32,000 nt of DNA from Deinococcus radiodurans R1 = ATCC 13939 = DSM 20539 (GTDB lineage Bacteria > Deinococcota > Deinococci > Deinococcales > Deinococcaceae): positions 541,213 to 573,212 of the forward strand of contig NC_001263.1 in the NCBI RefSeq assembly GCF_000008565.1, read 5' to 3'. A program made the translations under genes and the position numbers. Each line of letters opens with the position of its first letter. Positions within the stretch are counted from its first letter, which is position 1. This document shows positions 1 to 6,525 of the stretch, in pieces. The notes below the pieces were generated by a model, which was given only the letters and a program-made list of their open reading frames with translations, did no database searches and had not been told where the DNA came from.

Positions 1-226
1 TGCGTTGCACGGGTGACAGGAGCTGAGGCCGCACCGAAAGCGGCGCACGCCGGACAGCAGCGACGACTAGCTCCTGGGCCTTGCGGTACTTCACCTGATC
101 CCAGCCCGCTTGCCCCACCGCCAGAATACCGCCGATGAAAAAAATCAGGACAAAAATCAGGTTCAGCGTCAGGTCACTGAAAGCGATGTAAGGGTTGGTG
201 TCGCCCCGAAGACGCGACGTGCTCAT
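1..226 (-). CDS. MotB/ExbD/ZorB-like stator subunit, N-terminal fragment (gene continues beyond the left edge)
   Basis: Open at the window edge, so absent from the ORF track. The reverse complement of 1-226 reads ATG(226-224) MSTSRLRGDTNPYIAFSDLTLNLIFVLIFFIGGILAVGQAGWDQVKYRKAQELVVAAVRRAPLSVRPQLLSPVQR with no stop. GGAGG (236-232) lies 5 nt upstream of the ATG. A short basic N-terminus is followed by an Asp (FSDL) at the mouth of a single TM helix, which is the MotB-type layout. It starts 24 nt after the stop of the MotA-like gene. Confidence 0.6.
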   Translation of the reverse strand, partial: MSTSRLRGDTNPYIAFSDLTLNLIFVLIFFIGGILAVGQAGWDQVKYRKAQELVVAAVRRAPLSVRPQLLSPVQR

Positions 227-250
227 CCTTCCCTCCAGGCACGGCGGCGC

Positions 251-1486
251 TCAATCCCCACTTTGTACCTCGGCGCGCGAGCGGCTCAGGGCGCGGGACA
301 ATTCGCTGAAGGAGTGATCGAGACGTGCGGCGTAATTGCTCTGCTCGGTGCGGAAGGTCTGGCCCGACTCTTCAAAGCTGTTACTTGCCCGGCCCAGTTG
401 ATCGCCGACACGGGTGATCTGCTTGAGCAGTTCGGACGTGGTGGCCTGCACCGTGTCCTGGAGGCGACTGACCGTCGTCGCTTGCTGAGCGAGGTTCTGC
501 TGCAACTCCGTGCTGCTCGTGCGCAGGGACGAGGCGGCGCTTTCCTGAGCCTGCACCAGGTCCGACACGCCGCGACTCAGGCCCACAGTGAGTTCCTTGA
601 CAGACGTGTCCATCTGCCCGAAAACTTGCTCAATCTGTACACTGGTGTCCGAGAGTTGCGTCAGGCTCTGGCCCAGAGTGTCGCCCGCCTTGCCGAGCAC
701 GCTTTCGAGTTGGACCGCCACGTCTTGCAGCCTCTTGTGAATGTCCTGAAAGCTATTGCCCGCGTCGCGCAGGTAGCGGCCCATGCGCTCCATTTGCGAA
801 GTGATGGCGCGGGGGAAGGTGGCTGGGACAAGTTCGGCGTGTACAAAGGCGTTGAGTTCGTCCTCAAAGGTTTCCTGCGCGCGGGCGGCCAGCGCAAAGG
901 CTACCCCGGTGCCCAGGCTTAGCAGGATGCCCCACAGACTTGCCCCAAACGCCCCCTGCATGACACTCATGGTGCTGGCAAGGGCGTCGGCAAGTTCTCC
1001 CGGCTCTGTGGCCCGCGCGGCGTTGCGGATCGGAGTCACGAGGGTTCCGATTGACCCGGCGAGGCCCATCACCGTGCCCAGCAAACCAGCGAGCATCAGC
1101 AGGTTGGGAATGTTGCGCGCCGACGAGAGGCCAGCTTGTGCGGCGGCGCCCACGGCCTGCGTCGCCGCCTGCAAGTCCGGCGTGGCAAGAGTCCGGGCGC
1201 GGGTCACAGCCACCACCGCTTGCCGCACGGCGCTGGTGGCGGGCAAGGCCTGCGCGGCACGCCAGGCGTCCTCAGCCACTTCGTCGGATTCTGGCGGGTC
1301 CTCGGTGTCTAGGGCAGGCAAGACTACCTGGCGGATTTGTTCTAGAAAGCTCCGTTCCTGTTGGCGCCGCTGACGAGCCACGGCCAGGGCCCGCATGAAG
1401 TAAAGAGTAAGCGGCAACATGACGGCGAGCAGGACCAGCCAGCCTTCGGGCCTCAACTGAAAGAGGGTATTCAGAAATTCACTCAT
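251..1486 (-). CDS. MotA/TolQ/ExbB-family channel subunit with a ~210-aa C-terminal helical/coiled-coil tail (ZorA-like architecture)
   Basis: 411-aa ORF. TM1 is GWLVLLAVMLPLTLYFMRALAV. The hallmark MotA/ExbB core is NIPNLLMLAGLLGTVMGLAGSIG (compare the LGLLGTV.G motif of TolQ/ExbB), followed by ADALASTMSVMQGAFGASLWGILLSLGTGVAFALAA. Residues ~205-411 are Ser/Thr/Gln/Leu-rich with heptad-like periodicity. Only 3 nt separate it from the upstream gene's stop. Confidence 0.8.
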   Translation of the reverse strand: MSEFLNTLFQLRPEGWLVLLAVMLPLTLYFMRALAVARQRRQQERSFLEQIRQVVLPALDTEDPPESDEVAEDAWRAAQALPATSAVRQAVVAVTRARTLATPDLQAATQAVGAAAQAGLSSARNIPNLLMLAGLLGTVMGLAGSIGTLVTPIRNAARATEPGELADALASTMSVMQGAFGASLWGILLSLGTGVAFALAARAQETFEDELNAFVHAELVPATFPRAITSQMERMGRYLRDAGNSFQDIHKRLQDVAVQLESVLGKAGDTLGQSLTQLSDTSVQIEQVFGQMDTSVKELTVGLSRGVSDLVQAQESAASSLRTSSTELQQNLAQQATTVSRLQDTVQATTSELLKQITRVGDQLGRASNSFEESGQTFRTEQSNYAARLDHSFSELSRALSRSRAEVQSGD

Positions 1487-1489
1487 GGT

Positions 1490-4400
1490 TTACCCGAACA
1501 CGCTGTAGCGTTGGCCGAAGGGATGCTCAACGTCATCAGGGTGGTATTCGCACTTCAGGCCCTGGCCGATGACGTCCTCGAAGGTTTCGCCCACTGGGCC
1601 ACCACAGACCCGGCAGTAGTACCCCTGAGTGTTGGCAACGCGGCCTTTGGGCAGCCGTTCTCCCTTGTCCTTGTACAGGCCGTCAATGAGGTTGTTATCG
1701 GGCGGAAATGTCTCCAGCAGGGCCTGTCTCAGGTCAGCATCCTGCGTCAGGTACGCCATCAGGGCCGTCTGGGCTGCCTGATCGCTCCAGTCCCGAACAG
1801 CGCGGGCGCTGCTGCTGCTCATATTGTCGTGTAGCCATTTGACGTAAGCCTGCCTTCCCTCGGCGGGCGTGGGGTAACGGCCCACGATGGCTTTGCGCCG
1901 TGCCTCTATCTCGCTACGCAGGTACGTCGCGGCATTTGTGAGGCTCTTGGAGGGCCGCGAGCTGTCCTGCGGCTCAAAGGCCAGTTGCCGCGCGGCCTTG
2001 CCGAAGCTGCCCGCAAAGCGCCGCGCCCGCTTTTCCGGTTCAGTGGGTTCGCCGGGCTGCTGTGGCCACTCCATGACCAGGTGCCCGCCCGTCAGTTGCA
2101 GGTTGCCGTGGAGAGCTGAAAGGAAGACCAACTGCTCTGCTTCCTGGAGCTTGCGAATTTCCGCGTCGTTGATGGGTGTCCAGTCAATGTCGCTGCGTTT
2201 GCGGGTAAAGTAGGTGTTGAAGCGGGTGGGCTTGCTGTACGACAGTTCACGCACGTCGTCTGCACCGCGCAGAGCAAAGCGGTACCACTCCTCGAGCATC
2301 ACGACGCGGTAAGGATCGATGCCCTCGGTTTCCTTTGCCTCGGGGGACTTGTTCACCCACGGCTGGATAGCGCGGCGGAAGTCGGGAGTCATGTGCATGC
2401 CGACCAGCAGCTTGCGGCGCGGCAAAGGGCTCATGGGGTCCACCTGACCGAGGGGCTCATTGAGCTGCAAGAACAGCTCGGCCTGGGTGGCGGCGTGCAT
2501 GGCCTGACTGTCCGGATCGAAGCTCGGGCTGCGCTGCTCGTAAAGGCGGCGAATCACGTCCTTACCACTGCTGCGTAGGCTGCTCTCGAACGGTTCTACA
2601 GCGGCCTGTTCCAGTGCGTTGAGCTGCGCCCGCTCGAAGTTGTCCTGGCCGACGGCCCAGGCTCCCAGCAACCAGTCGGGGTCGTTGACGCCTGGCAAGA
2701 CGCCCTTGACCAGTGCGTCCCAGGAGCGGATCAGGCGTGCCGCGTGGGCCTCGCGCTGCTTGTCACTGACCGCCAGTTCCTGCTCCTTGTCCACCGAGCC
2801 ATTCGGAGAAGGCTCGAACAAAGACAGACCGTTGACGCTGGCTGAGTCGTTTTCCAGACGGGCACGGGTATCGCGCCAGCGGTCGGCCTGGTTGGTCAGG
2901 CGGCGGCGCAGCATGGTCAGGCGCCGGGTCAGCTTCTCGGCTTCCTCCTCGACGATGCTGAGTGTGCCGGCCTCGGTCTTCTGGCCGCTGCCCCGGTCGG
3001 CAAAGACCTCGCGGACCTTTTGATTGACGCGTGACTTGATCTCGTCGTCCAGAGCGCGGCTTAGGGCGGGATACAGTTGCTGCGACGCCTTGCCTTTCAG
3101 GAAGAACATGCCGAGCAAGGTGTTGGTCCGGATGGTGTCGAGCTCATCCAGCACGCCGTTCGCCGCGCCTGACTTGCCCTCGCTGGGTTCCCAGCCACGC
3201 AGTTCGCCCACGCGGGGCTGCACTCCCTGCATAACCTCCAGCAAGACGTTGGGGCCTTGGTCATAGTCGAGCAGGCGGCTGCTCACTAGGCCGCGCACGT
3301 TCTCCATGACGCGTTCAGCCGCCACGCGGCGGTTGTCGTTAACGGTGCGGTGAACCAGGCCGCGCAGACCCTCGCCGGTGTCCCGGTCAAAGGCACTCCG
3401 CAGGTCTTTCACAGCGTCGCGTGCGCCCTGTACGTTGCCATTACGCACAGCACGCATCACTTCGTTCTTCTTGGCGTCCAGGCTGGCACGGACACTCGCG
3501 CCGGAGGCGTCCAGCAACAGGGATTCGGTCAGGTTAGGGATGGTCAGCCCCATGGTGTCCAGGTCCTCTTCGAGCCGGCCCTCGTACTTGCGGTCTTTCC
3601 AGCGGTCGACGGCGTGCACCAGCGTCCGGTATTTCAGCGCTTCCAGGATGCGCCGCATCGGGTACTCAATGGTGGATAGACCAAAGGTGGAGAAGGCGAA
3701 GGCGCGGCCCTGTTGCACGGTCACGGGGCCAGCGTTCACCATGTAGGCCATCGGGTCGGTCTCCGGCACAAATACGTTCAGGAACATGCGGTCGGCAATG
3801 GCATTGGACAGGCGCAGCAGATCCATCGTCTCCGTACTGTTCGGGCGTAGCAGGTAGACGAGGTCATAGGGCATGGCGTCCCCCGGCAAGATGGCCGTTC
3901 CCTCGGGTTTATCGGGGTACTTGATGCTCTGGTAGCGCTCGCGGTCGTTGTGCAGGTGGTACTGGTTCAGTTCGGCGAGGGCGTGATAGGCGTTCGTTTT
4001 CCAGATTTCCGCGTCGGGTTTTTGGGCGATCCCCAGGTCAGGATGCGGCAGGGTAAACATCCCCAGCGTCTTCTCTTCCTCACTCAGGATGGTGCGCAGC
4101 AAAATGCCTACATCACTGGCGGTGCCGCTACAGGTTCCGCCGCAGAGCGTGCCCACGACGATGACACGGACCCCGGTCTGTCCGCTGGCCTGGTTCACCG
4201 CAAACTGCACGGACATTTCCAGGCCGGCATTGTCCTTGTTGAGTGCGGCTTTGGCCTGCGCTTCAGTCAGGTTCCGCAGCCGTGCCACTCGTTGCGAAAT
4301 GGCATTCTTGATCTCATTGTAGTTGGGCGGATAAAGCAGAGCGAGCCGCCCCACCATACGGATATGACCTGCGCCGGAGTCAATGCTCTGAGCGGGCAAT

Positions 4401-4702
4401 TGCCCCAGCGTTTCCAGGTCTGCCCAGGTGTTCAGGGCGATGCTGGCGTCGTACAGCTCAGGGCGATTGAGCATGTCCCGCCACGCCGTAGCTGGCACCC
4501 CGAGCGTCTTGAAATCGTCCGTGCCGTTGAAACGGTTGGGCTTCGCCACGTCCGTCTCCACCGCCAGAAACTCCACCCACGGGGCGCGGCTGAGGCCTCC
4601 GACTTCCCAATCGATTCGGTCTGCCAGAGATTCCAGAATTTCCGTCCCGGTGCTGCCCAACCCGATGACGAGAGTTTTAAAGACGCGCATGTTTTCTGCC
4701 AT
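1490..4702 (-). CDS. Giant tubulin/FtsZ-superfamily GTPase-like protein (1070 aa) with a long helical C-terminal region and a terminal Cys/His knuckle
   Basis: The N-terminal ~350 aa carry three loops in canonical order. T1-like: LVIGLGSTGTE (res 11-21; FtsZ GxGGGGxN). T3-like: DSGAGHIRMVGR (res 108-119; FtsZ GLGAGxNPxxGR). T4 signature-like: VVGTLCGGTCSGTASD (res 182-197; FtsZ/tubulin GGGTGxG). The C-terminus ends in YYCRVCGGPVG...LKCEYHPDD. The ATG overlaps the upstream TAA (TAATG at 4700-4704). Confidence 0.85.
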   Translation of the reverse strand: MAENMRVFKTLVIGLGSTGTEILESLADRIDWEVGGLSRAPWVEFLAVETDVAKPNRFNGTDDFKTLGVPATAWRDMLNRPELYDASIALNTWADLETLGQLPAQSIDSGAGHIRMVGRLALLYPPNYNEIKNAISQRVARLRNLTEAQAKAALNKDNAGLEMSVQFAVNQASGQTGVRVIVVGTLCGGTCSGTASDVGILLRTILSEEEKTLGMFTLPHPDLGIAQKPDAEIWKTNAYHALAELNQYHLHNDRERYQSIKYPDKPEGTAILPGDAMPYDLVYLLRPNSTETMDLLRLSNAIADRMFLNVFVPETDPMAYMVNAGPVTVQQGRAFAFSTFGLSTIEYPMRRILEALKYRTLVHAVDRWKDRKYEGRLEEDLDTMGLTIPNLTESLLLDASGASVRASLDAKKNEVMRAVRNGNVQGARDAVKDLRSAFDRDTGEGLRGLVHRTVNDNRRVAAERVMENVRGLVSSRLLDYDQGPNVLLEVMQGVQPRVGELRGWEPSEGKSGAANGVLDELDTIRTNTLLGMFFLKGKASQQLYPALSRALDDEIKSRVNQKVREVFADRGSGQKTEAGTLSIVEEEAEKLTRRLTMLRRRLTNQADRWRDTRARLENDSASVNGLSLFEPSPNGSVDKEQELAVSDKQREAHAARLIRSWDALVKGVLPGVNDPDWLLGAWAVGQDNFERAQLNALEQAAVEPFESSLRSSGKDVIRRLYEQRSPSFDPDSQAMHAATQAELFLQLNEPLGQVDPMSPLPRRKLLVGMHMTPDFRRAIQPWVNKSPEAKETEGIDPYRVVMLEEWYRFALRGADDVRELSYSKPTRFNTYFTRKRSDIDWTPINDAEIRKLQEAEQLVFLSALHGNLQLTGGHLVMEWPQQPGEPTEPEKRARRFAGSFGKAARQLAFEPQDSSRPSKSLTNAATYLRSEIEARRKAIVGRYPTPAEGRQAYVKWLHDNMSSSSARAVRDWSDQAAQTALMAYLTQDADLRQALLETFPPDNNLIDGLYKDKGERLPKGRVANTQGYYCRVCGGPVGETFEDVIGQGLKCEYHPDDVEHPFGQRYSVFG

Positions 4703-5031
4703 TAGGCTCGGGCTCCCATTTTTGAGAAGATGACGTGAAGGATGATGGCCAGCAGCAGGAAGGTCAGGGTCACTGCTCCCAGGTAGATCAGGTCGGTCGG
4801 TTTGAAGAGGAAATAAGCTCCGGCTGCCAGCGCTACGGCCAGCAACAGCAGGGCGATGTTCATGCCCTGATTGGCCGCATCAACCGCCGACCGATTGCCC
4901 GCACCGAAAAACACATGCGCGAACGCCACTGAAACCGCGTACCACAGCAGCACGGTGCCCAGAATGGTCAGCCAGAAGTTCATCTGGGTATAGAGAGGAA
5001 CAACTTGCTTGAAAATGTCGTTGAAATCCAT
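4702..5031 (-). CDS. Small 3-TM membrane protein (109 aa), function unknown
   Basis: Three hydrophobic helices: FWLTILGTVLLWYAVSVAFAHVFF, MNIALLLLAVALAAGAYFLF and LIYLGAVTLTFLLLAIILHVIF. The start overlaps the upstream stop (TGATG at 5029-5033) and the stop overlaps the downstream start. Confidence 0.7.
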   Translation of the reverse strand: MDFNDIFKQVVPLYTQMNFWLTILGTVLLWYAVSVAFAHVFFGAGNRSAVDAANQGMNIALLLLAVALAAGAYFLFKPTDLIYLGAVTLTFLLLAIILHVIFSKMGARA

Positions 5032-6350
5032 CAGTGGTCTCCCTGCTGATAAGAAAGGGTGAGAGAGCGTGTGATTTCACGCGGCACGCCGCCCGCGCCG
5101 CGCACCTCGCCGGTCAGTTCAAGTTGATGGTCAGGCTGATCGAGGCGCAGGGGAAAAGAAGCCGCGTTTCCCACCGCCACACGGCCATCGACGCTGCTCA
5201 GCGTGACGGCTTCACTCGTGCCGCGCACCTTAAGGTCCTTGCCGACCCGGACGAGTTCGGCAATCCGTTCGGCTGGAAGGCCCTGCACCGGCACGACCGC
5301 TACCCCTTCCTCGCTGTAGCCAGGGCCAGCAATCACGCAGAAGGGCCTGCCGTTGGGCATATCGCGGAGGCTGAAGTTCGAATCTCCAACGCGCAGGCTG
5401 CCCCGCGCTCCACCTTGCCCGCCGCCCTTGATGAGCATCCAAACCAAGCCTCCGATCAGCCCAAGCCCCAGCAGGCCCAGAAGAAAGGGAGCAGCGGAGC
5501 CGTTCTTCTTTTCTGCTTTGACCGGCTGAGCACTCTGGTCAAGTTGCTGTGTACGGGTGGTGTTGCCCAGAGGAGTGGCCGTAAACGTCTTGGGCAGCAA
5601 CACGACGGCTTGCATCTGCCCCGGTACGGCGCCGCCGGGTGTTTTGATGGTGTAGGGAATATTCAGGGTGGCGCCGTCCTGCGTCCCAGCGACCCGCGTC
5701 CATGTCTCCAGCATCTTCTGATAACTCCCAGCATTGGTGCCGAGCAGCTTCGTACCTGCTGAGCCGACGCTGGCTGCCGTATTGGTCAGCAGAATCAAAA
5801 CGGTATCTGGTGAATTCGCGAATTCCTTCGTGAACGATACAGCGGCCCTTTCCGTATCGTGCCCTCCCGCGCTCCCTACTGCGGGCGTGGTGGGCCACAA
5901 CCGCTCCACACCGCCTTTATCGGCCTGACTGTCTGTGCCGATCTGCTGGGTAAGCCCCTGGGCATTCCTAAACGCCCAGGGCTTGAGTTCCCAGGCGCGT
6001 GCTGTCACCTGGTCGCCGGTCATTGCTTCACGTGCAATGAACTGCGAGGCCACTTCCCGTGCCGCCTGTGCGCCCAGCGGATCAGACTTGAAGTGCCCAG
6101 TGCTGAACGCCATTACCCAATGGACGTTTTGCTTATCCAAGTCGCCGCCCGCCGCTGTGACAGCCTCATTCACACTGCTCAATAAGCGGTCAACTCCTGG
6201 CTTGAGGCTAGAGCGCATCAATTCGGTTTTACCTCTGACATCTTGCGCCTGCACTGTGCTTGAGAGCATCAAGGCCGCTGTCAGCCAACCAATAAGGGGT
6301 AAGTCTGGGCTTCTGAAATGAGGTCTAAGGGAACGTGAAGTTTTGTACAT
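5031..6350 (-). CDS. Bitopic membrane protein: signal peptide, ~290-aa extracytoplasmic domain, one TM helix, ~125-aa cytoplasmic domain; function unknown
   Basis: The ORF extends to 6467. The Met at 6350 gives MYKTSRSLRPHFRSPDLPLIGWLTAALMLSSTVQA/QD, which looks like a signal peptide. Alternative starts are 6395 and 6467. TM helix AAPFLLGLLGLGLIGGLVWMLIKG lies at nt ~5427-5495. It is the first gene of the operon. Confidence 0.7.
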   Translation of the reverse strand: MYKTSRSLRPHFRSPDLPLIGWLTAALMLSSTVQAQDVRGKTELMRSSLKPGVDRLLSSVNEAVTAAGGDLDKQNVHWVMAFSTGHFKSDPLGAQAAREVASQFIAREAMTGDQVTARAWELKPWAFRNAQGLTQQIGTDSQADKGGVERLWPTTPAVGSAGGHDTERAAVSFTKEFANSPDTVLILLTNTAASVGSAGTKLLGTNAGSYQKMLETWTRVAGTQDGATLNIPYTIKTPGGAVPGQMQAVVLLPKTFTATPLGNTTRTQQLDQSAQPVKAEKKNGSAAPFLLGLLGLGLIGGLVWMLIKGGGQGGARGSLRVGDSNFSLRDMPNGRPFCVIAGPGYSEEGVAVVPVQGLPAERIAELVRVGKDLKVRGTSEAVTLSSVDGRVAVGNAASFPLRLDQPDHQLELTGEVRGAGGVPREITRSLTLSYQQGDH

Positions 6351-6419
6351 AAGAATGATGTAACCTCGCTTAACCGAAGCATACGACCTTCTCATGACAC
6401 TGCTGTCACATTGTTGGGC

Positions 6420-6447
6420 TTTATAGGTGGAGGCAAGGGAAAAGTAA
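6420..6447 (-). promoter_or_regulatory. Candidate sigma70-type promoter of the tubulin-like/MotAB-like operon
   Basis: The minus strand reads TTACTT (6447-6442), a 16-nt spacer, then TATAAA (6425-6420). It sits in a locally AT-rich stretch between the DUF72 terminator and the first operon gene. Pattern match only. Confidence 0.3.
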
Positions 6448-6525
6448 GGACCAATGTGACGTTTCACTTGTGGTCCCTAAACAGGGTAGGCTGCCCGCAC
6501 GTGCTGATAGTTCGACTGCTAACTA

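Follow-up and report, generated by a model that had tools for sequence, protein, structure and literature searches.

A probable ZorAB-like motor module with a long helical tail in the FtsZl1 operon of Deinococcus radiodurans

The neighboring genes DR_0537 and DR_0536 of Deinococcus radiodurans most likely specify an ion-driven motor of the membrane that is anchored in the cell wall, carries a long internal stalk, and is kin to the anti-phage motors of Zorya systems. In its fuller form, we consider it probable that the two proteins constitute a ZorAB-like 5:2 motor that the FtsZl1 system uses as its envelope module. Both genes, with their names, are already public. What is new is the interpretation, which is drawn from remote homology and synteny.

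Both genes lie at the left end of a 32,000-nucleotide stretch of the D. radiodurans R1 chromosome (the window), to which all coordinates refer. An earlier note made from the letters of this stretch had described a MotA/ExbB-type subunit with a long helical tail and a MotB-like partner, and had likened the pair to ZorAB. As a whole, that observation is confirmed by the analysis below, and its interpretation is supported. The features of the two genes are as follows.

251..1486, minus strand: DR_0537, 411 aa, a ZorA-like A subunit of the MotA/ExbB/TolQ superfamily (open reading frame listing, Pfam, Foldseek, family profile)
1376..1441, minus strand: DR_0537 TM1, a peripheral transmembrane (TM) helix, residues 16-37 (hydropathy scan; AF2 helix 13-60)
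1112..1375, minus strand: DR_0537 membrane-proximal cytoplasmic domain, residues 38-125 (four short AF2 helices; alignment A1)
1037..1111, minus strand: DR_0537 TM2, residues 126-150, with PNLLMLAGLLGTV (alignments)
875..961, minus strand: DR_0537 TM3, residues 176-204, with QGAFGASLWG (alignments)
254..814, minus strand: DR_0537 C-terminal tail on the cytoplasmic side, residues 225-411, a single long amphipathic helix (AF2, periodicity, conservation)
1..226, minus strand: first 75 codons of DR_0536 (full length 201 aa), a MotB/ZorB-like B subunit (Pfam OmpA, ZorB1, and MotD/MotB-family matches)

The channel core and its partner subunit

A hydropathy scan of DR_0537 yields three TM segments at approximately residues 16-37, 126-150, and 176-204, and the cytoplasmic domain at residues 38-125 includes an acidic run, DTEDPPESDEVAEDA. 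Core motifs had been placed at about residues 125-200, and they were located as LAGLLGTVMGLAGSIG at residues 132-147 and ALASTMSVMQGAFGASLWGILLSLGTGVAFALAA at residues 168-201. The best-conserved part of the protein is this TM2-TM3 MotA/ExbB core (entropy 1.01 bits). Thr138 in TM2 (nt 1073-1075) is never substituted across 85 family representatives, and at the position of Ser183 in TM3 (nt 938-940), every DR_0537 orthologue has Ser or Thr. HMMER alignment pairs these residues with the Thr and Ser of Shewanella ZorA, placing GLLGTV of TM2 opposite GVIGTF and AFxx[ST]LWG of TM3 opposite AFLTSVWG. Likewise, solved Zorya ZorAB complexes (EcZorAB 8QYD; Shewanella 8VVN; type II 8VVI) have a three-TM A subunit with a ring of TM2 Thr and TM3 Ser residues (the ZorAB features compared here are from PMC11946911 and PMC11890865). 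By analogy, Thr138 and Ser183 would be oriented toward the Asp of the B subunit.

Assignment of DR_0537 to the MotA/ExbB superfamily was borne out by several searches. Pfam MotA_ExbB (PF01618) was matched by all 14 orthologue cores (best 1.7e-5) and by 36 of the 85 wider-family representatives (best 9.8e-12); DR_0537 alone gave E=0.055-0.4, which is under the gathering cut-off. In a 5.8-billion-sequence database, a core profile matched proteins labelled MotA or ExbB/TolQ at E values of 1e-5 to 1e-3; the core profile recovers approximately 790 clusters (50% identity) at E<=0.001 and 180 at E<=1e-10. The AF2 model of DR_0537 has a moderate overall pLDDT of 70.8, falling below 50 at residues 266-293. 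Its best 50 Foldseek matches are all TolQ, ExbB, ZorA, and PomA chains, almost all with a probability of 1.00 and with modest E values (1e-3 to 1e-1). The fold of its TM2-TM3 hairpin is common to solved A subunits, with TM-scores of at most 0.65 (ExbB).

Sequence profiles place the family closest to ZorA. When the wider-family profile (A4) was compared with the PDB, the closest solved relative was ZorA 8vvn (E=1.6e-15), and EcZorA 8qyd (2e-8), the ZorA tail-deletion construct 8qyk (1e-7, with the match spanning the core), and type II ZorA 8vvi (3e-5) were also matched. MotA, ExbB, and TolQ were absent among the best 60 PDB matches of this profile, the only one to give ZorA as a PDB match. The full-length profile (A1) found only generic helical bundles in the PDB because the tail dominates it, and the Deinococcus-only core profile (A2) found no significant PDB match. 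PADLOC ZorA models match 44 of the 85 family representatives and NCBIfam antiphage_ZorA_4 matches 39. ZorA models are the commonest matches of the family in both collections, every one of them under its cut-off, and TolQ, ExbB, and MotA models are absent from the best 25 NCBIfam models. DR_0537 itself matches PADLOC ZorA at E of about 1e-4. The low-complexity helical tail accounts for some of the resemblance to ZorA models, and the family match of DR_0537 taken singly is weak and remote.

The open reading frame of DR_0536 runs off the left edge of the window, and its full 201 aa were taken from the D. radiodurans chromosome, with whose records the window agrees at 100% identity across 11,486 bases. 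The protein begins with MSTSRLRGDTNPYIAFSDLTLNLIFVLIFF, exactly as had been quoted for the open reading frame running from 226 down to 1. Two Asp residues are found there. D9 is variable among orthologues, and Asp18 (nt 173-175, in NPYIAFSD; NPYIA[LF]xD in the family) is unchanged in 20/20 loci (10 genome and 10 metagenomic). Asp18 abuts the cytoplasmic end of a single N-terminal TM helix (nt 104-172), in keeping with the earlier claim of a MotB-like Asp before the helix. After the TM helix comes an amphipathic helix, at the position of the MotB plug.

A peptidoglycan (PG)-binding domain, if there was one, had been placed beyond the window, and leftward extension recovered it: Pfam OmpA is matched by residues 91-188 of the completed protein (E=1.4e-20, above cut-off). 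The best named matches of DR_0536 are MotS, MotB, and MotD, with the PG-binding domains of MotS and MotB matched in the PDB and MotD and MotB-family models matched in NCBIfam. PADLOC ZorB1 is matched under its cut-off (E=6e-7) over residues 9-155, which cover both the TM helix and the PG-binding domain. This match, together with the family's preference for ZorA, upholds the comparison with ZorAB. ZorB similarly has one TM helix, an essential Asp, and a short link to an OmpA-type PG-binding domain. MotAB and PomAB are also encoded as A-B gene pairs, with a MotB-type Asp at the start of the TM helix and a C-terminal OmpA-like PG-binding domain. An OmpA-domain gene comes after the A gene in all 20 loci.

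Canonical PG-contact motifs comprise the Asp of GHTD and the Asn and Arg of NxxLSxxRA. DR_0536 has GHTQ in place of the former and Asp in place of the Asn. Across orthologues, Q, L, K, or M stands in place of the GHTD Asp and D, E, T, or A in place of the Asn, with the Arg invariant. Thus, relative to ZorB, two canonical PG-contact residues are replaced, and wall binding by DR_0536 is not assured. Deinococcus peptidoglycan is of the Orn type. Residues Y151/N152/L155/R159 of ZorB were also used in defining the contact motif (PMC11946911).

The cytoplasmic tail of DR_0537

Three lines of evidence concur that DR_0537 carries the long helical cytoplasmic tail described in the earlier note: the AF2 model, residue periodicity, and face-specific conservation. 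AF2 calls residues 225-270 and 285-409 helical, and the tail would measure approximately 28 nm, provided that the helix is unbroken. From residue 225 to the C terminus, the composition is 14% Ser, 12% Gln, 11% Leu, and 9% Thr. Hydrophobic periodicity is coherent across 187 residues with its phase unbroken, and its power of 230 compares with 16 +/- 10 for shuffled sequences (0/2000 shuffles as high). The fine peak lies at 3.58 residues. A Ser/Thr/Gln/Leu-rich, heptad-like tail had been claimed, and the composition and coherent periodicity stand, whereas the period is near a heptad but not strictly so. Peaks at 3.56-3.62 are found in 55 of 58 family tails.

The hydrophobic stripe coincides with the conserved face of the tail (entropy 0.97 versus 2.16 bits; Spearman -0.57, p=2e-17), and the inner hydrophobic face has about twice the conservation of the outer face. 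One conserved patch of the tail, GxxxLxxAQ, lies at residues 306-315. Such strong conservation of one face suggests that the tail is functional. Two findings had been named in advance as contrary to a ZorAB-like reading, namely a partner without an OmpA/MotB-type domain and a disordered tail. Neither was observed: DR_0536 has such a domain, and AF2 predicts a helical tail.

ZorA likewise has a very long, Ser/Gln-rich, single-helix C-terminal tail whose length is variable. The tail of EcZorA is about 500 aa, whereas that of DR_0537 is about 190 aa and near type II size. The Shewanella ZorA tail resembles that of DR_0537 in its Ser/Gln-rich composition and peaks at 3.64. The ZorA tail is reported to be right-handed; the DR_0537 period of 3.58 versus 3.64 would imply a slightly left-handed or near-straight bundle. 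A search of the D. radiodurans tail for internal sequence repeats found none besides the helical periodicity. The tail of one distant orthologue (P0045) contains an 85-residue duplication.

The FtsZl1 operon and a proposed mechanism

DR_0537 and DR_0536 belong to an operon whose upstream genes are as follows.

1490..4702, minus strand: DR_0538, 1070 aa, FtsZl1 tubulin-like GTPase with a C-terminal extension of about 700 aa (Pfam Tubulin_2, E=1.4e-73)
4702..5031, minus strand: DR_0539, 109 aa, small hydrophobic, predicted membrane protein (its ends overlap both neighboring genes)
5031..6350, minus strand: DR_0540, 439 aa counted from Met40 of a 478-aa open reading frame (AF2 and Foldseek)

The stop codon of DR_0538, the gene directly upstream, is 3 nt ahead of the DR_0537 start, and the operon genes are tightly packed throughout, with overlaps or gaps of 3 nt to 24 nt. 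A Tubulin_2 gene is found beside the A-B pair in 10/10 genome loci and in 5/10 distant metagenomic loci. DR_0538 is the obvious candidate partner for the DR_0537 tail. DR_0539 is kept in Deinococcus-type loci. The order vWA-like gene, small TM protein gene, Tubulin_2, A, and B is retained from Deinococcus to an Actinomycetes MAG, and other operon partners are an LRV-repeat protein and a Ser/Thr kinase. Both the published operon membership and the GTPase gene had been missed in the earlier note.

This locus is one of the FtsZl1 operons of Makarova and Koonin (2010), whose Additional file 5 lists DR_0534 to DR_0540 gene by gene, and the gene sizes and order found here agree exactly with their table. 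Those authors labelled DR_0537 a "MotA/TolQ/ExbB membrane protein" and chose DR_0536 to represent their "OmpA-like" family. They took the OmpA-like proteins to be beta-barrel-type membrane transport proteins, whereas we read DR_0536 as a stator-type B subunit, and their paper does not discuss the MotA-like gene, the tail, or a stator-type A-B complex. Our literature searches gave no match for the locus tags DR_0536, DR_0537, and DR_0538, and found no paper joining Zorya or MotA with tubulin or FtsZl1.

DR_0540 was "hypothetical" in the 2010 table and is vWA-like here. The AF2 model (pLDDT 87) gives a signal peptide, a vWA-like ectodomain, a TM helix, and an FHA-like cytoplasmic domain. In Foldseek, the ectodomain matches CLCA1 and a Catenulispora VWA (6pyo, probability 0.99; 4fx5) and the cytoplasmic domain matches the FHA domain of OdhI. 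Several homologues are called "VWFA domain-containing" in UniRef. A Pfam scan of DR_0540 and nine orthologues found no family, and the MIDAS DxSxS motif was not found in DR_0540.

Taken together with homology to ZorAB, these data are consistent with the following mechanism. Five DR_0537 subunits, each with three TM helices, would encircle the TM helices contributed by a pair of DR_0536 subunits, whose OmpA-type domains would tether the complex to the cell wall. Ions passing Asp18 along a path lined by Thr138 and Ser183 could cause the DR_0537 ring to turn or re-set. The five tails (residues 225-411) may join through the conserved hydrophobic stripe, forming a cytoplasmic stalk of about 25-28 nm that would act as the output element. 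Through this stalk, the motor might relay an envelope event to the cytoplasmic operon products, with the DR_0538 GTPase, the FHA-like domain of DR_0540, the LRV-repeat protein, and the Ser/Thr kinase as putative targets.

A bolder proposal, which we regard as unlikely, is that FtsZl1 operons form a Zorya-like, envelope-triggered class in which the stalk of a PG-anchored 5:2 rotary motor controls the polymerization or recruitment of a tubulin-family GTPase, with the vWA ectodomain/FHA protein and the Ser/Thr kinase as input. If true, it would for the first time connect an ion-driven rotary motor functionally with a tubulin-type cytoskeletal element in prokaryotes, and it would describe a Zorya-type sensor with a cytoskeletal rather than a nuclease effector arm. 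In the sixteen years since FtsZl1 proteins were described, their operon has been given no reading other than that of a vague "membrane remodelling" system. Should the MotA/OmpA pair be a ZorAB-like tailed motor, the FtsZl1 hypothesis would become concrete and testable.

Alternative readings and genomic context

The same ZorAB-like motor could instead serve a housekeeping function in membrane remodelling or envelope homeostasis, which we judge possible though rather unlikely. This is the published hypothesis for the FtsZl1 operon (Makarova and Koonin), and every component is membrane- or envelope-associated. Moreover, TolQR, the best structural match, serves envelope maintenance during division (PMC12583513), and one family member (L027) is surrounded by metabolic and other non-defence genes. 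However, the operon has a patchy, accessory distribution. It sits on megaplasmids in four Deinococcus species, and in D. radiophilus it is interrupted by IS630 in a viable strain. In a sample of four plasmids and one chromosome, which is anecdotal, its neighbors are IS elements, McrBC-like genes, CRISPR-associated genes, MazF, and nuclease-helicase genes. The A-B module also swaps partners in the manner of Zorya types, and its closest sequence relatives of known function are anti-phage ZorA proteins. We therefore lean toward a role in conflict and defence or in the response to envelope damage, and this is the least certain part of our interpretation.

It is very improbable that the pair is an ExbBD/TolQR-type energiser of a TonB/TolA-like periplasmic transducer with the tail as decoration. 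TolQ and ExbB do lead the Foldseek matches and are the best structural matches of the DR_0537 core (5sv0, TM-score 0.65; 9ddm, E=1e-3), and they share its three-TM topology. Yet ExbB and TolQ lack the long tail, whose hydrophobic face is strongly conserved in DR_0537, and the family is closer to ZorA in sequence, with ExbB/TolQ sequence models not among its matches. Furthermore, ExbD and TolR lack an OmpA domain and act via TonB or TolA, whereas DR_0536 has the MotB/ZorB-type OmpA domain. The operon contains no TonB/TolA-like gene, DR_0539 being merely a 109-aa hydrophobic protein.

We give still less credence to a genuine Zorya system (type I-III) or a degenerate remnant of one, even though ZorA and ZorB are the sole PADLOC families matched by the pair and the tail architecture is alike. 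DR_0537 misses the ZorA cut-offs widely (18.6 bits versus 100 for NCBIfam ZorA_2; 17 versus 700 for ZorA2). As the earlier note had stated of the Zorya effectors, PADLOC ZorC-G models gave no match on DR_0538, DR_0539, DR_0540, the LRV protein, the kinase, or the three genes that follow, and the conserved neighbors are instead Tubulin_2 and the vWA-like protein. With the ZorA and ZorB cut-offs missed and adjacent type-specific effectors not found, this assignment was rejected.

The idea that DR_0537 is no motor, and instead resembles a chemoreceptor or is a coiled-coil membrane protein of a generic kind, is scarcely credible: the tail profile matches the MCP signalling domain 2ch7 (E=3e-8) along with many helical bundles, and NCBI PGAP calls the D. 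radiophilus orthologue of DR_0537 a "methyl-accepting chemotaxis protein," but the wider-family profile gives such matches to designed helical bundles and apolipoproteins as well, so that they reflect periodic composition, while Pfam MCPsignal is listed neither for DR_0537 nor among the best 25 families of the wider family, the most conserved region is the MotA/ExbB core, and an obligatory B subunit with an invariant Asp lies alongside. A flagellar stator was also rejected. MotA lacks a tail and has four TM helices plus a large cytoplasmic domain that generates torque, whereas DR_0537 has three TM helices, no torque domain, and the tail; PomA matches the DR_0537 model weakly (TM-score 0.25-0.38). 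Deinococcus is not known to have a flagellum.

The preferred reading, a ZorAB-like tailed motor, would extend the principle of a wall-anchored motor with a long signalling stalk past Zorya. ZorAB is similarly joined to interchangeable cytoplasmic partners. In Zorya these are ZorC-G, whereas the FtsZl1 operon supplies the tubulin-like GTPase DR_0538, the vWA/FHA membrane protein DR_0540, an LRV protein, and a kinase. Related loci combine the A-B module with kinase/PP2C, vWA, or NERD-UvrD partners. This variety of partners, together with the number of clusters (roughly 790), suggests that envelope-to-cytoplasm transducers of this kind make up a broad and modular family. A paper on MotAB evolution left ZorAB out of its trees and mentions neither Deinococcus nor tubulin. 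In the table of Makarova and Koonin (2010), cyanobacterial operons combine B7, a family left unassigned (549 aa), with a COG1360 "flagellar motor protein," and this pair may be the same A-B module.

The operon and its prior description

A series of tightly packed minus-strand genes, delimited by an ORF scan, occupies the left end of the window.

6467..5031, minus strand: DR_0540, 478-aa ORF
5031..4702, minus strand: DR_0539, 109 aa
4702..1490, minus strand: DR_0538, 1070 aa
1486..251, minus strand: DR_0537, 411 aa
226..1, minus strand: DR_0536, first 75 codons

All motifs cited in the earlier note were found where it had placed them. An exact-sequence look-up located the 411-aa DR_0537 protein in many Deinococcus radiodurans assemblies, and the D. 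radiodurans genome record (L001) used to extend the window is 100% identical over 11,486 compared bases.

The gene sizes and order match those of DR_0540, DR_0539, DR_0538, DR_0537, and DR_0536 in a table published by Makarova and Koonin in 2010 (PMC2875224 Additional file 5). [quoted passage not shown] The locus, and a plain designation for both DR_0537 and DR_0536, were thus already public. In the same source, DR_0536 is followed by the repeat protein DR_0535 (labelled “LLR”) and the Ser/Thr kinase DR_0534. OmpA-like proteins are discussed there as beta-barrel-type transport proteins, and the pair is not treated as a stator-like complex. A later paper on FtsZ and tubulin evolution adds nothing further on FtsZl1 function, and the Zorya papers (including PMC11946911) and MotAB-evolution paper examined make no mention of FtsZl1, tubulin, or Deinococcus. 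A targeted literature search, incomplete in coverage, revealed no paper linking a ZorAB-type motor with the FtsZl1 operon, and an earlier description is possible. The combination of a ZorAB-type module and tubulin-like partners would be a new variation on a known type; the operon itself was known.

The membrane subunits DR_0537 and DR_0536

Hydropathy and an AF2 model place three transmembrane (TM) helices in DR_0537 (residues ~16-37, 126-150, and 176-204); TM1 and TM2 are separated by a helical cytoplasmic domain of 88 residues. The model is of moderate confidence overall (pLDDT 70.8; core ~65-91). DR_0537 alone is a poor match to the Pfam family MotA_ExbB (E=0.055-0.4). This family is matched by 14 of 14 orthologue cores (best 1.7e-5) and by 36 of 85 sampled family members (best 1e-11). 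A profile of the core, when searched against 5.8 billion sequences, retrieves proteins named MotA or ExbB/TolQ (E 1e-5 to 1e-3). An exhaustive profile search with the core yielded 792 clusters at E<=1e-3, and the majority of the matches listed are 400-950 aa long with the core at the N terminus. Furthermore, the best 50 PDB matches of the AF2 model (Foldseek) are exclusively A subunits of 5:2 motors, with modest E-values, and include TolQ (9ddm, E=1e-3), ExbB (5sv0, TM-score 0.65), ZorA (8qyd, 8vvn), and PomA. The MotA/ExbB-type channel core proposed earlier is thus borne out by the orthologue matches and the structural comparison. Residues 60-74 (window 1265-1309, minus strand), in the membrane-proximal cytoplasmic domain, form an acidic run, DTEDPPESDEVAEDA; the equivalent domain of EcZorA binds Ca2+ (PMC11946911).

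The best solved match of a wider-family profile of the A subunit in the PDB is the type I ZorA of Shewanella (8vvn, E=1.6e-15), the alignment starting at TM2 and extending into the tail. Other ZorA matches are EcZorA (8qyd, 2e-8), the core in a tail-deletion construct (8qyk, 1e-7), and a type II ZorA (8vvi, 3e-5); MotA, ExbB, TolQ, and PomA are not among the best 60 PDB matches. Likewise, PADLOC ZorA models are matched by 44 of the 85 family members (best 7e-13). The leading NCBIfam family is antiphage_ZorA_4 (39/85 members, best 9e-12), and no TolQ, ExbB, or MotA model is among the best 25 NCBIfam families for these proteins. By sequence comparison, the family is nearer to ZorA than to the classical MotA, ExbB, and TolQ families, with a share of the ZorA-model similarity stemming from tail composition. 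All ZorA-model scores are far under the ZorA cut-offs; the DR_0537 family represents a related clade rather than ZorA.

HMMER aligns GLLGTV to GVIGTF of ZorA and AFxx[ST]LWG to AFLTSVWG. Therefore, Thr138, which is invariant across the 85 sequences, lines up with a ZorA Thr, and Ser183 with a ZorA Ser. Hu et al. described a ring of Thr147 and Ser184 around Asp26 of ZorB (PMC11946911), and we infer that Thr138 and Ser183 are the counterparts of these ring residues.

When completed from the genome record, DR_0536 is a 201-aa protein (L001 11261-11866) whose start occupies window positions 1-226. The earlier note had allowed for a peptidoglycan-binding domain beyond the window edge, and leftward extension recovered an OmpA-type domain at residues 91-188 (Pfam, E=1.4e-20, above cut-off). 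Among solved structures, its closest relatives are the MotS and MotB peptidoglycan-binding domains, the first-listed NCBIfam models are MotD and MotB-family, and PADLOC ZorB1 aligns to residues 9-155, spanning the TM helix and the domain (E=6e-7). The N terminus reads NPYIAFSD-LTLNLIFVLIFF. An Asp had been noted immediately before the TM helix, as in MotB, ExbD, and TolR, and this residue (Asp18) is invariant in all 20 homologues compared (ten genomic orthologues and ten distant metagenomic homologues); Asp9 is variable. The linker from the TM helix to the OmpA domain is short (~45 residues) and starts with an amphipathic helix.

In the OmpA domain of DR_0536, two positions that usually contact peptidoglycan are not conserved: GHTD is changed to GHTQ, and the Asn of NxxLSxxRA to Asp. 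Among orthologues, the first position is Q/L/K/M and the second D/E/T/A, with the Arg invariant. Deinococcus peptidoglycan is of the ornithine type. The changed residues may reflect this wall type, or wall binding may be altered or lost.

Collectively, the assignment of DR_0537 as a MotA/ExbB-superfamily A subunit of a ZorA-like clade, partnered by a MotB/ZorB-like OmpA-domain B subunit with a putative essential Asp, is well supported.

The cytoplasmic tail

AF2 predicts residues 225-411 of DR_0537 to be helical, and their hydrophobicity shows one sharp, coherent period of 3.58 residues (power 230 versus 16 +/- 10 in shuffles), in agreement with the long helical tail suggested earlier. The phase drifts smoothly and without a jump through the low-confidence segment 266-293, which argues for one continuous helix and not a hairpin. 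Among 22 orthologues, entropy is 0.97 bits on the hydrophobic face versus 2.16 bits on the outer face (Spearman -0.57, p=2e-17). A hydrophobic face with half the entropy is characteristic of a stripe buried inside a homo-oligomeric bundle.

Across the family, the period peak lies at 3.56-3.62 in 55 of 58 tails, and tails are 140 to 493 residues long (median 364). In one distant orthologue (P0045/P0046), an internal duplication of 85 residues has made the tail longer (autocorrelation z=5.3). The Shewanella ZorA tail, as reconstructed from alignment text, gives a like period signal (peak 3.64) and has a similar Ser/Glu/Gln-rich composition. If continuous, the 187-residue tail of DR_0537 would span ~28 nm, which is shorter than the 70-nm tail of EcZorA. 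Judged by the size of the whole protein, DR_0537 (411 aa) lies nearer to type II ZorA (378-383 aa). The D. radiophilus orthologue (megaplasmid locus L024, 14004-15233) carries the NCBI name “methyl-accepting chemotaxis protein”, which is almost certainly wrong and prompted by the periodicity of the helical tail.

Operon partners, surroundings, and related loci

Gene context was sampled in a small set of 20 loci (ten genome loci and ten distant family representatives). The order vWA-like protein, small TM protein, Tubulin_2, A, and B is kept in the ten genome loci, which include a Deinococcales MAG, an Actinomycetes MAG, and an uncultured bacterium. The LRV-protein and kinase genes are accessory: they are matched in 8/10 and 5/10 of these loci, respectively, and the Actinomycetes MAG and the uncultured bacterium gave no match to either.

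DR_0540 matches no Pfam family. Its AF2 model (pLDDT 87, confident) has a signal peptide, an alpha/beta ectodomain, a TM helix (287-308), and a beta-sandwich. By Foldseek, the ectodomain resembles VWA domains (CLCA1 6pyo, probability 0.99; 4fx5) and the cytoplasmic domain resembles FHA domains (OdhI 2kb3, probability 0.90); several homologues are named “VWFA domain-containing” in UniRef. The ectodomain is without the MIDAS motif DxSxS; invariant motifs of the protein are GGHDTE and LLTNxAxS. The 478-aa ORF (window 5031-6467, minus strand) is probably over-extended, with 412-439 aa called in other assemblies. DR_0538 (window 1490-4702, minus strand) has the tubulin signature loop CGGTCSG and a ~700-aa C-terminal extension that matches no family and terminates in a Zn-ribbon-like motif, YYCRVCGG...KCEYH.

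The DR_0537 tail (window 254-814, minus strand) is 14% Ser and 9% Thr, and the operon kinase (L001 14433-16535) has a TM segment. Because the operon combines this Ser/Thr-rich tail with a Ser/Thr kinase and an FHA-like domain, it may operate by phospho-signalling, with a hint of phosphorylation-dependent docking on the DR_0537 stalk. By homology to solved 5:2 motors (PMC11946911, PMC11890865), five A and two B subunits would form a complex with a pentameric stalk, and ion flow would drive its rotation or re-setting. Judging from operon structure, the stalk may address the FtsZl1 GTPase, the other components (FHA, LRV, and kinase), or both.

Four other Deinococcus species carry the operon on megaplasmids (L022, L023, L024, and L025). 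It adjoins a transposase and genes for an AAA ATPase and a DUF2357 protein, a pair we read as McrBC-like, in strain QL22. In D. radiophilus, cas6, csx2, integrases, and MazF are close by, and the tubulin-like gene is interrupted by IS630. The D. deserti operon is flanked by IS3 copies and adjoins PD-(D/E)XK nuclease and UvrD helicase genes; downstream of the D. radiodurans operon are an HTH_17 gene and a Prim-Pol/DUF3987 gene (L001 16939-21236). These anecdotal observations are suggestive of an accessory, conflict-type system. We lean tentatively, at less than even odds, towards a role in conflict or defence, or in the response to envelope breach; a housekeeping role in envelope remodelling seems only slightly less likely.

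The OmpA-domain gene directly follows the A gene in all ten distant loci, and conservation across them is higher for the B subunit (40-47% identity) than for the A subunit (24-32%). Both the obligate A-B pairing and the long conserved single-helix tail are well supported. An FtsZl1 gene is nearby in five of these loci (L017, L021, L026, L029, and L030). The tubulin-like gene is absent beside the tailed A and OmpA-domain B genes in five:

L018: kinase-PP2C-kinase partners
L028: kinase partner
L019: vWA partner, also NERD/UvrD_C_2
L020: vWA partner
L027: no evident partner

The presence of the A-B module with varied partners and without a tubulin-like gene points to a modular family in which the FtsZl1 operon is one branch. 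In cyanobacterial FtsZl1 operons (for example Cyan8802_4287-4290, Ava_1849/1850), an unassigned membrane-associated family of 549 aa, “B7”, precedes a COG1360 “flagellar motor protein” (PMC2875224 Additional file 5), and these two may constitute the same ZorAB-like module, unrecognised in 2010.
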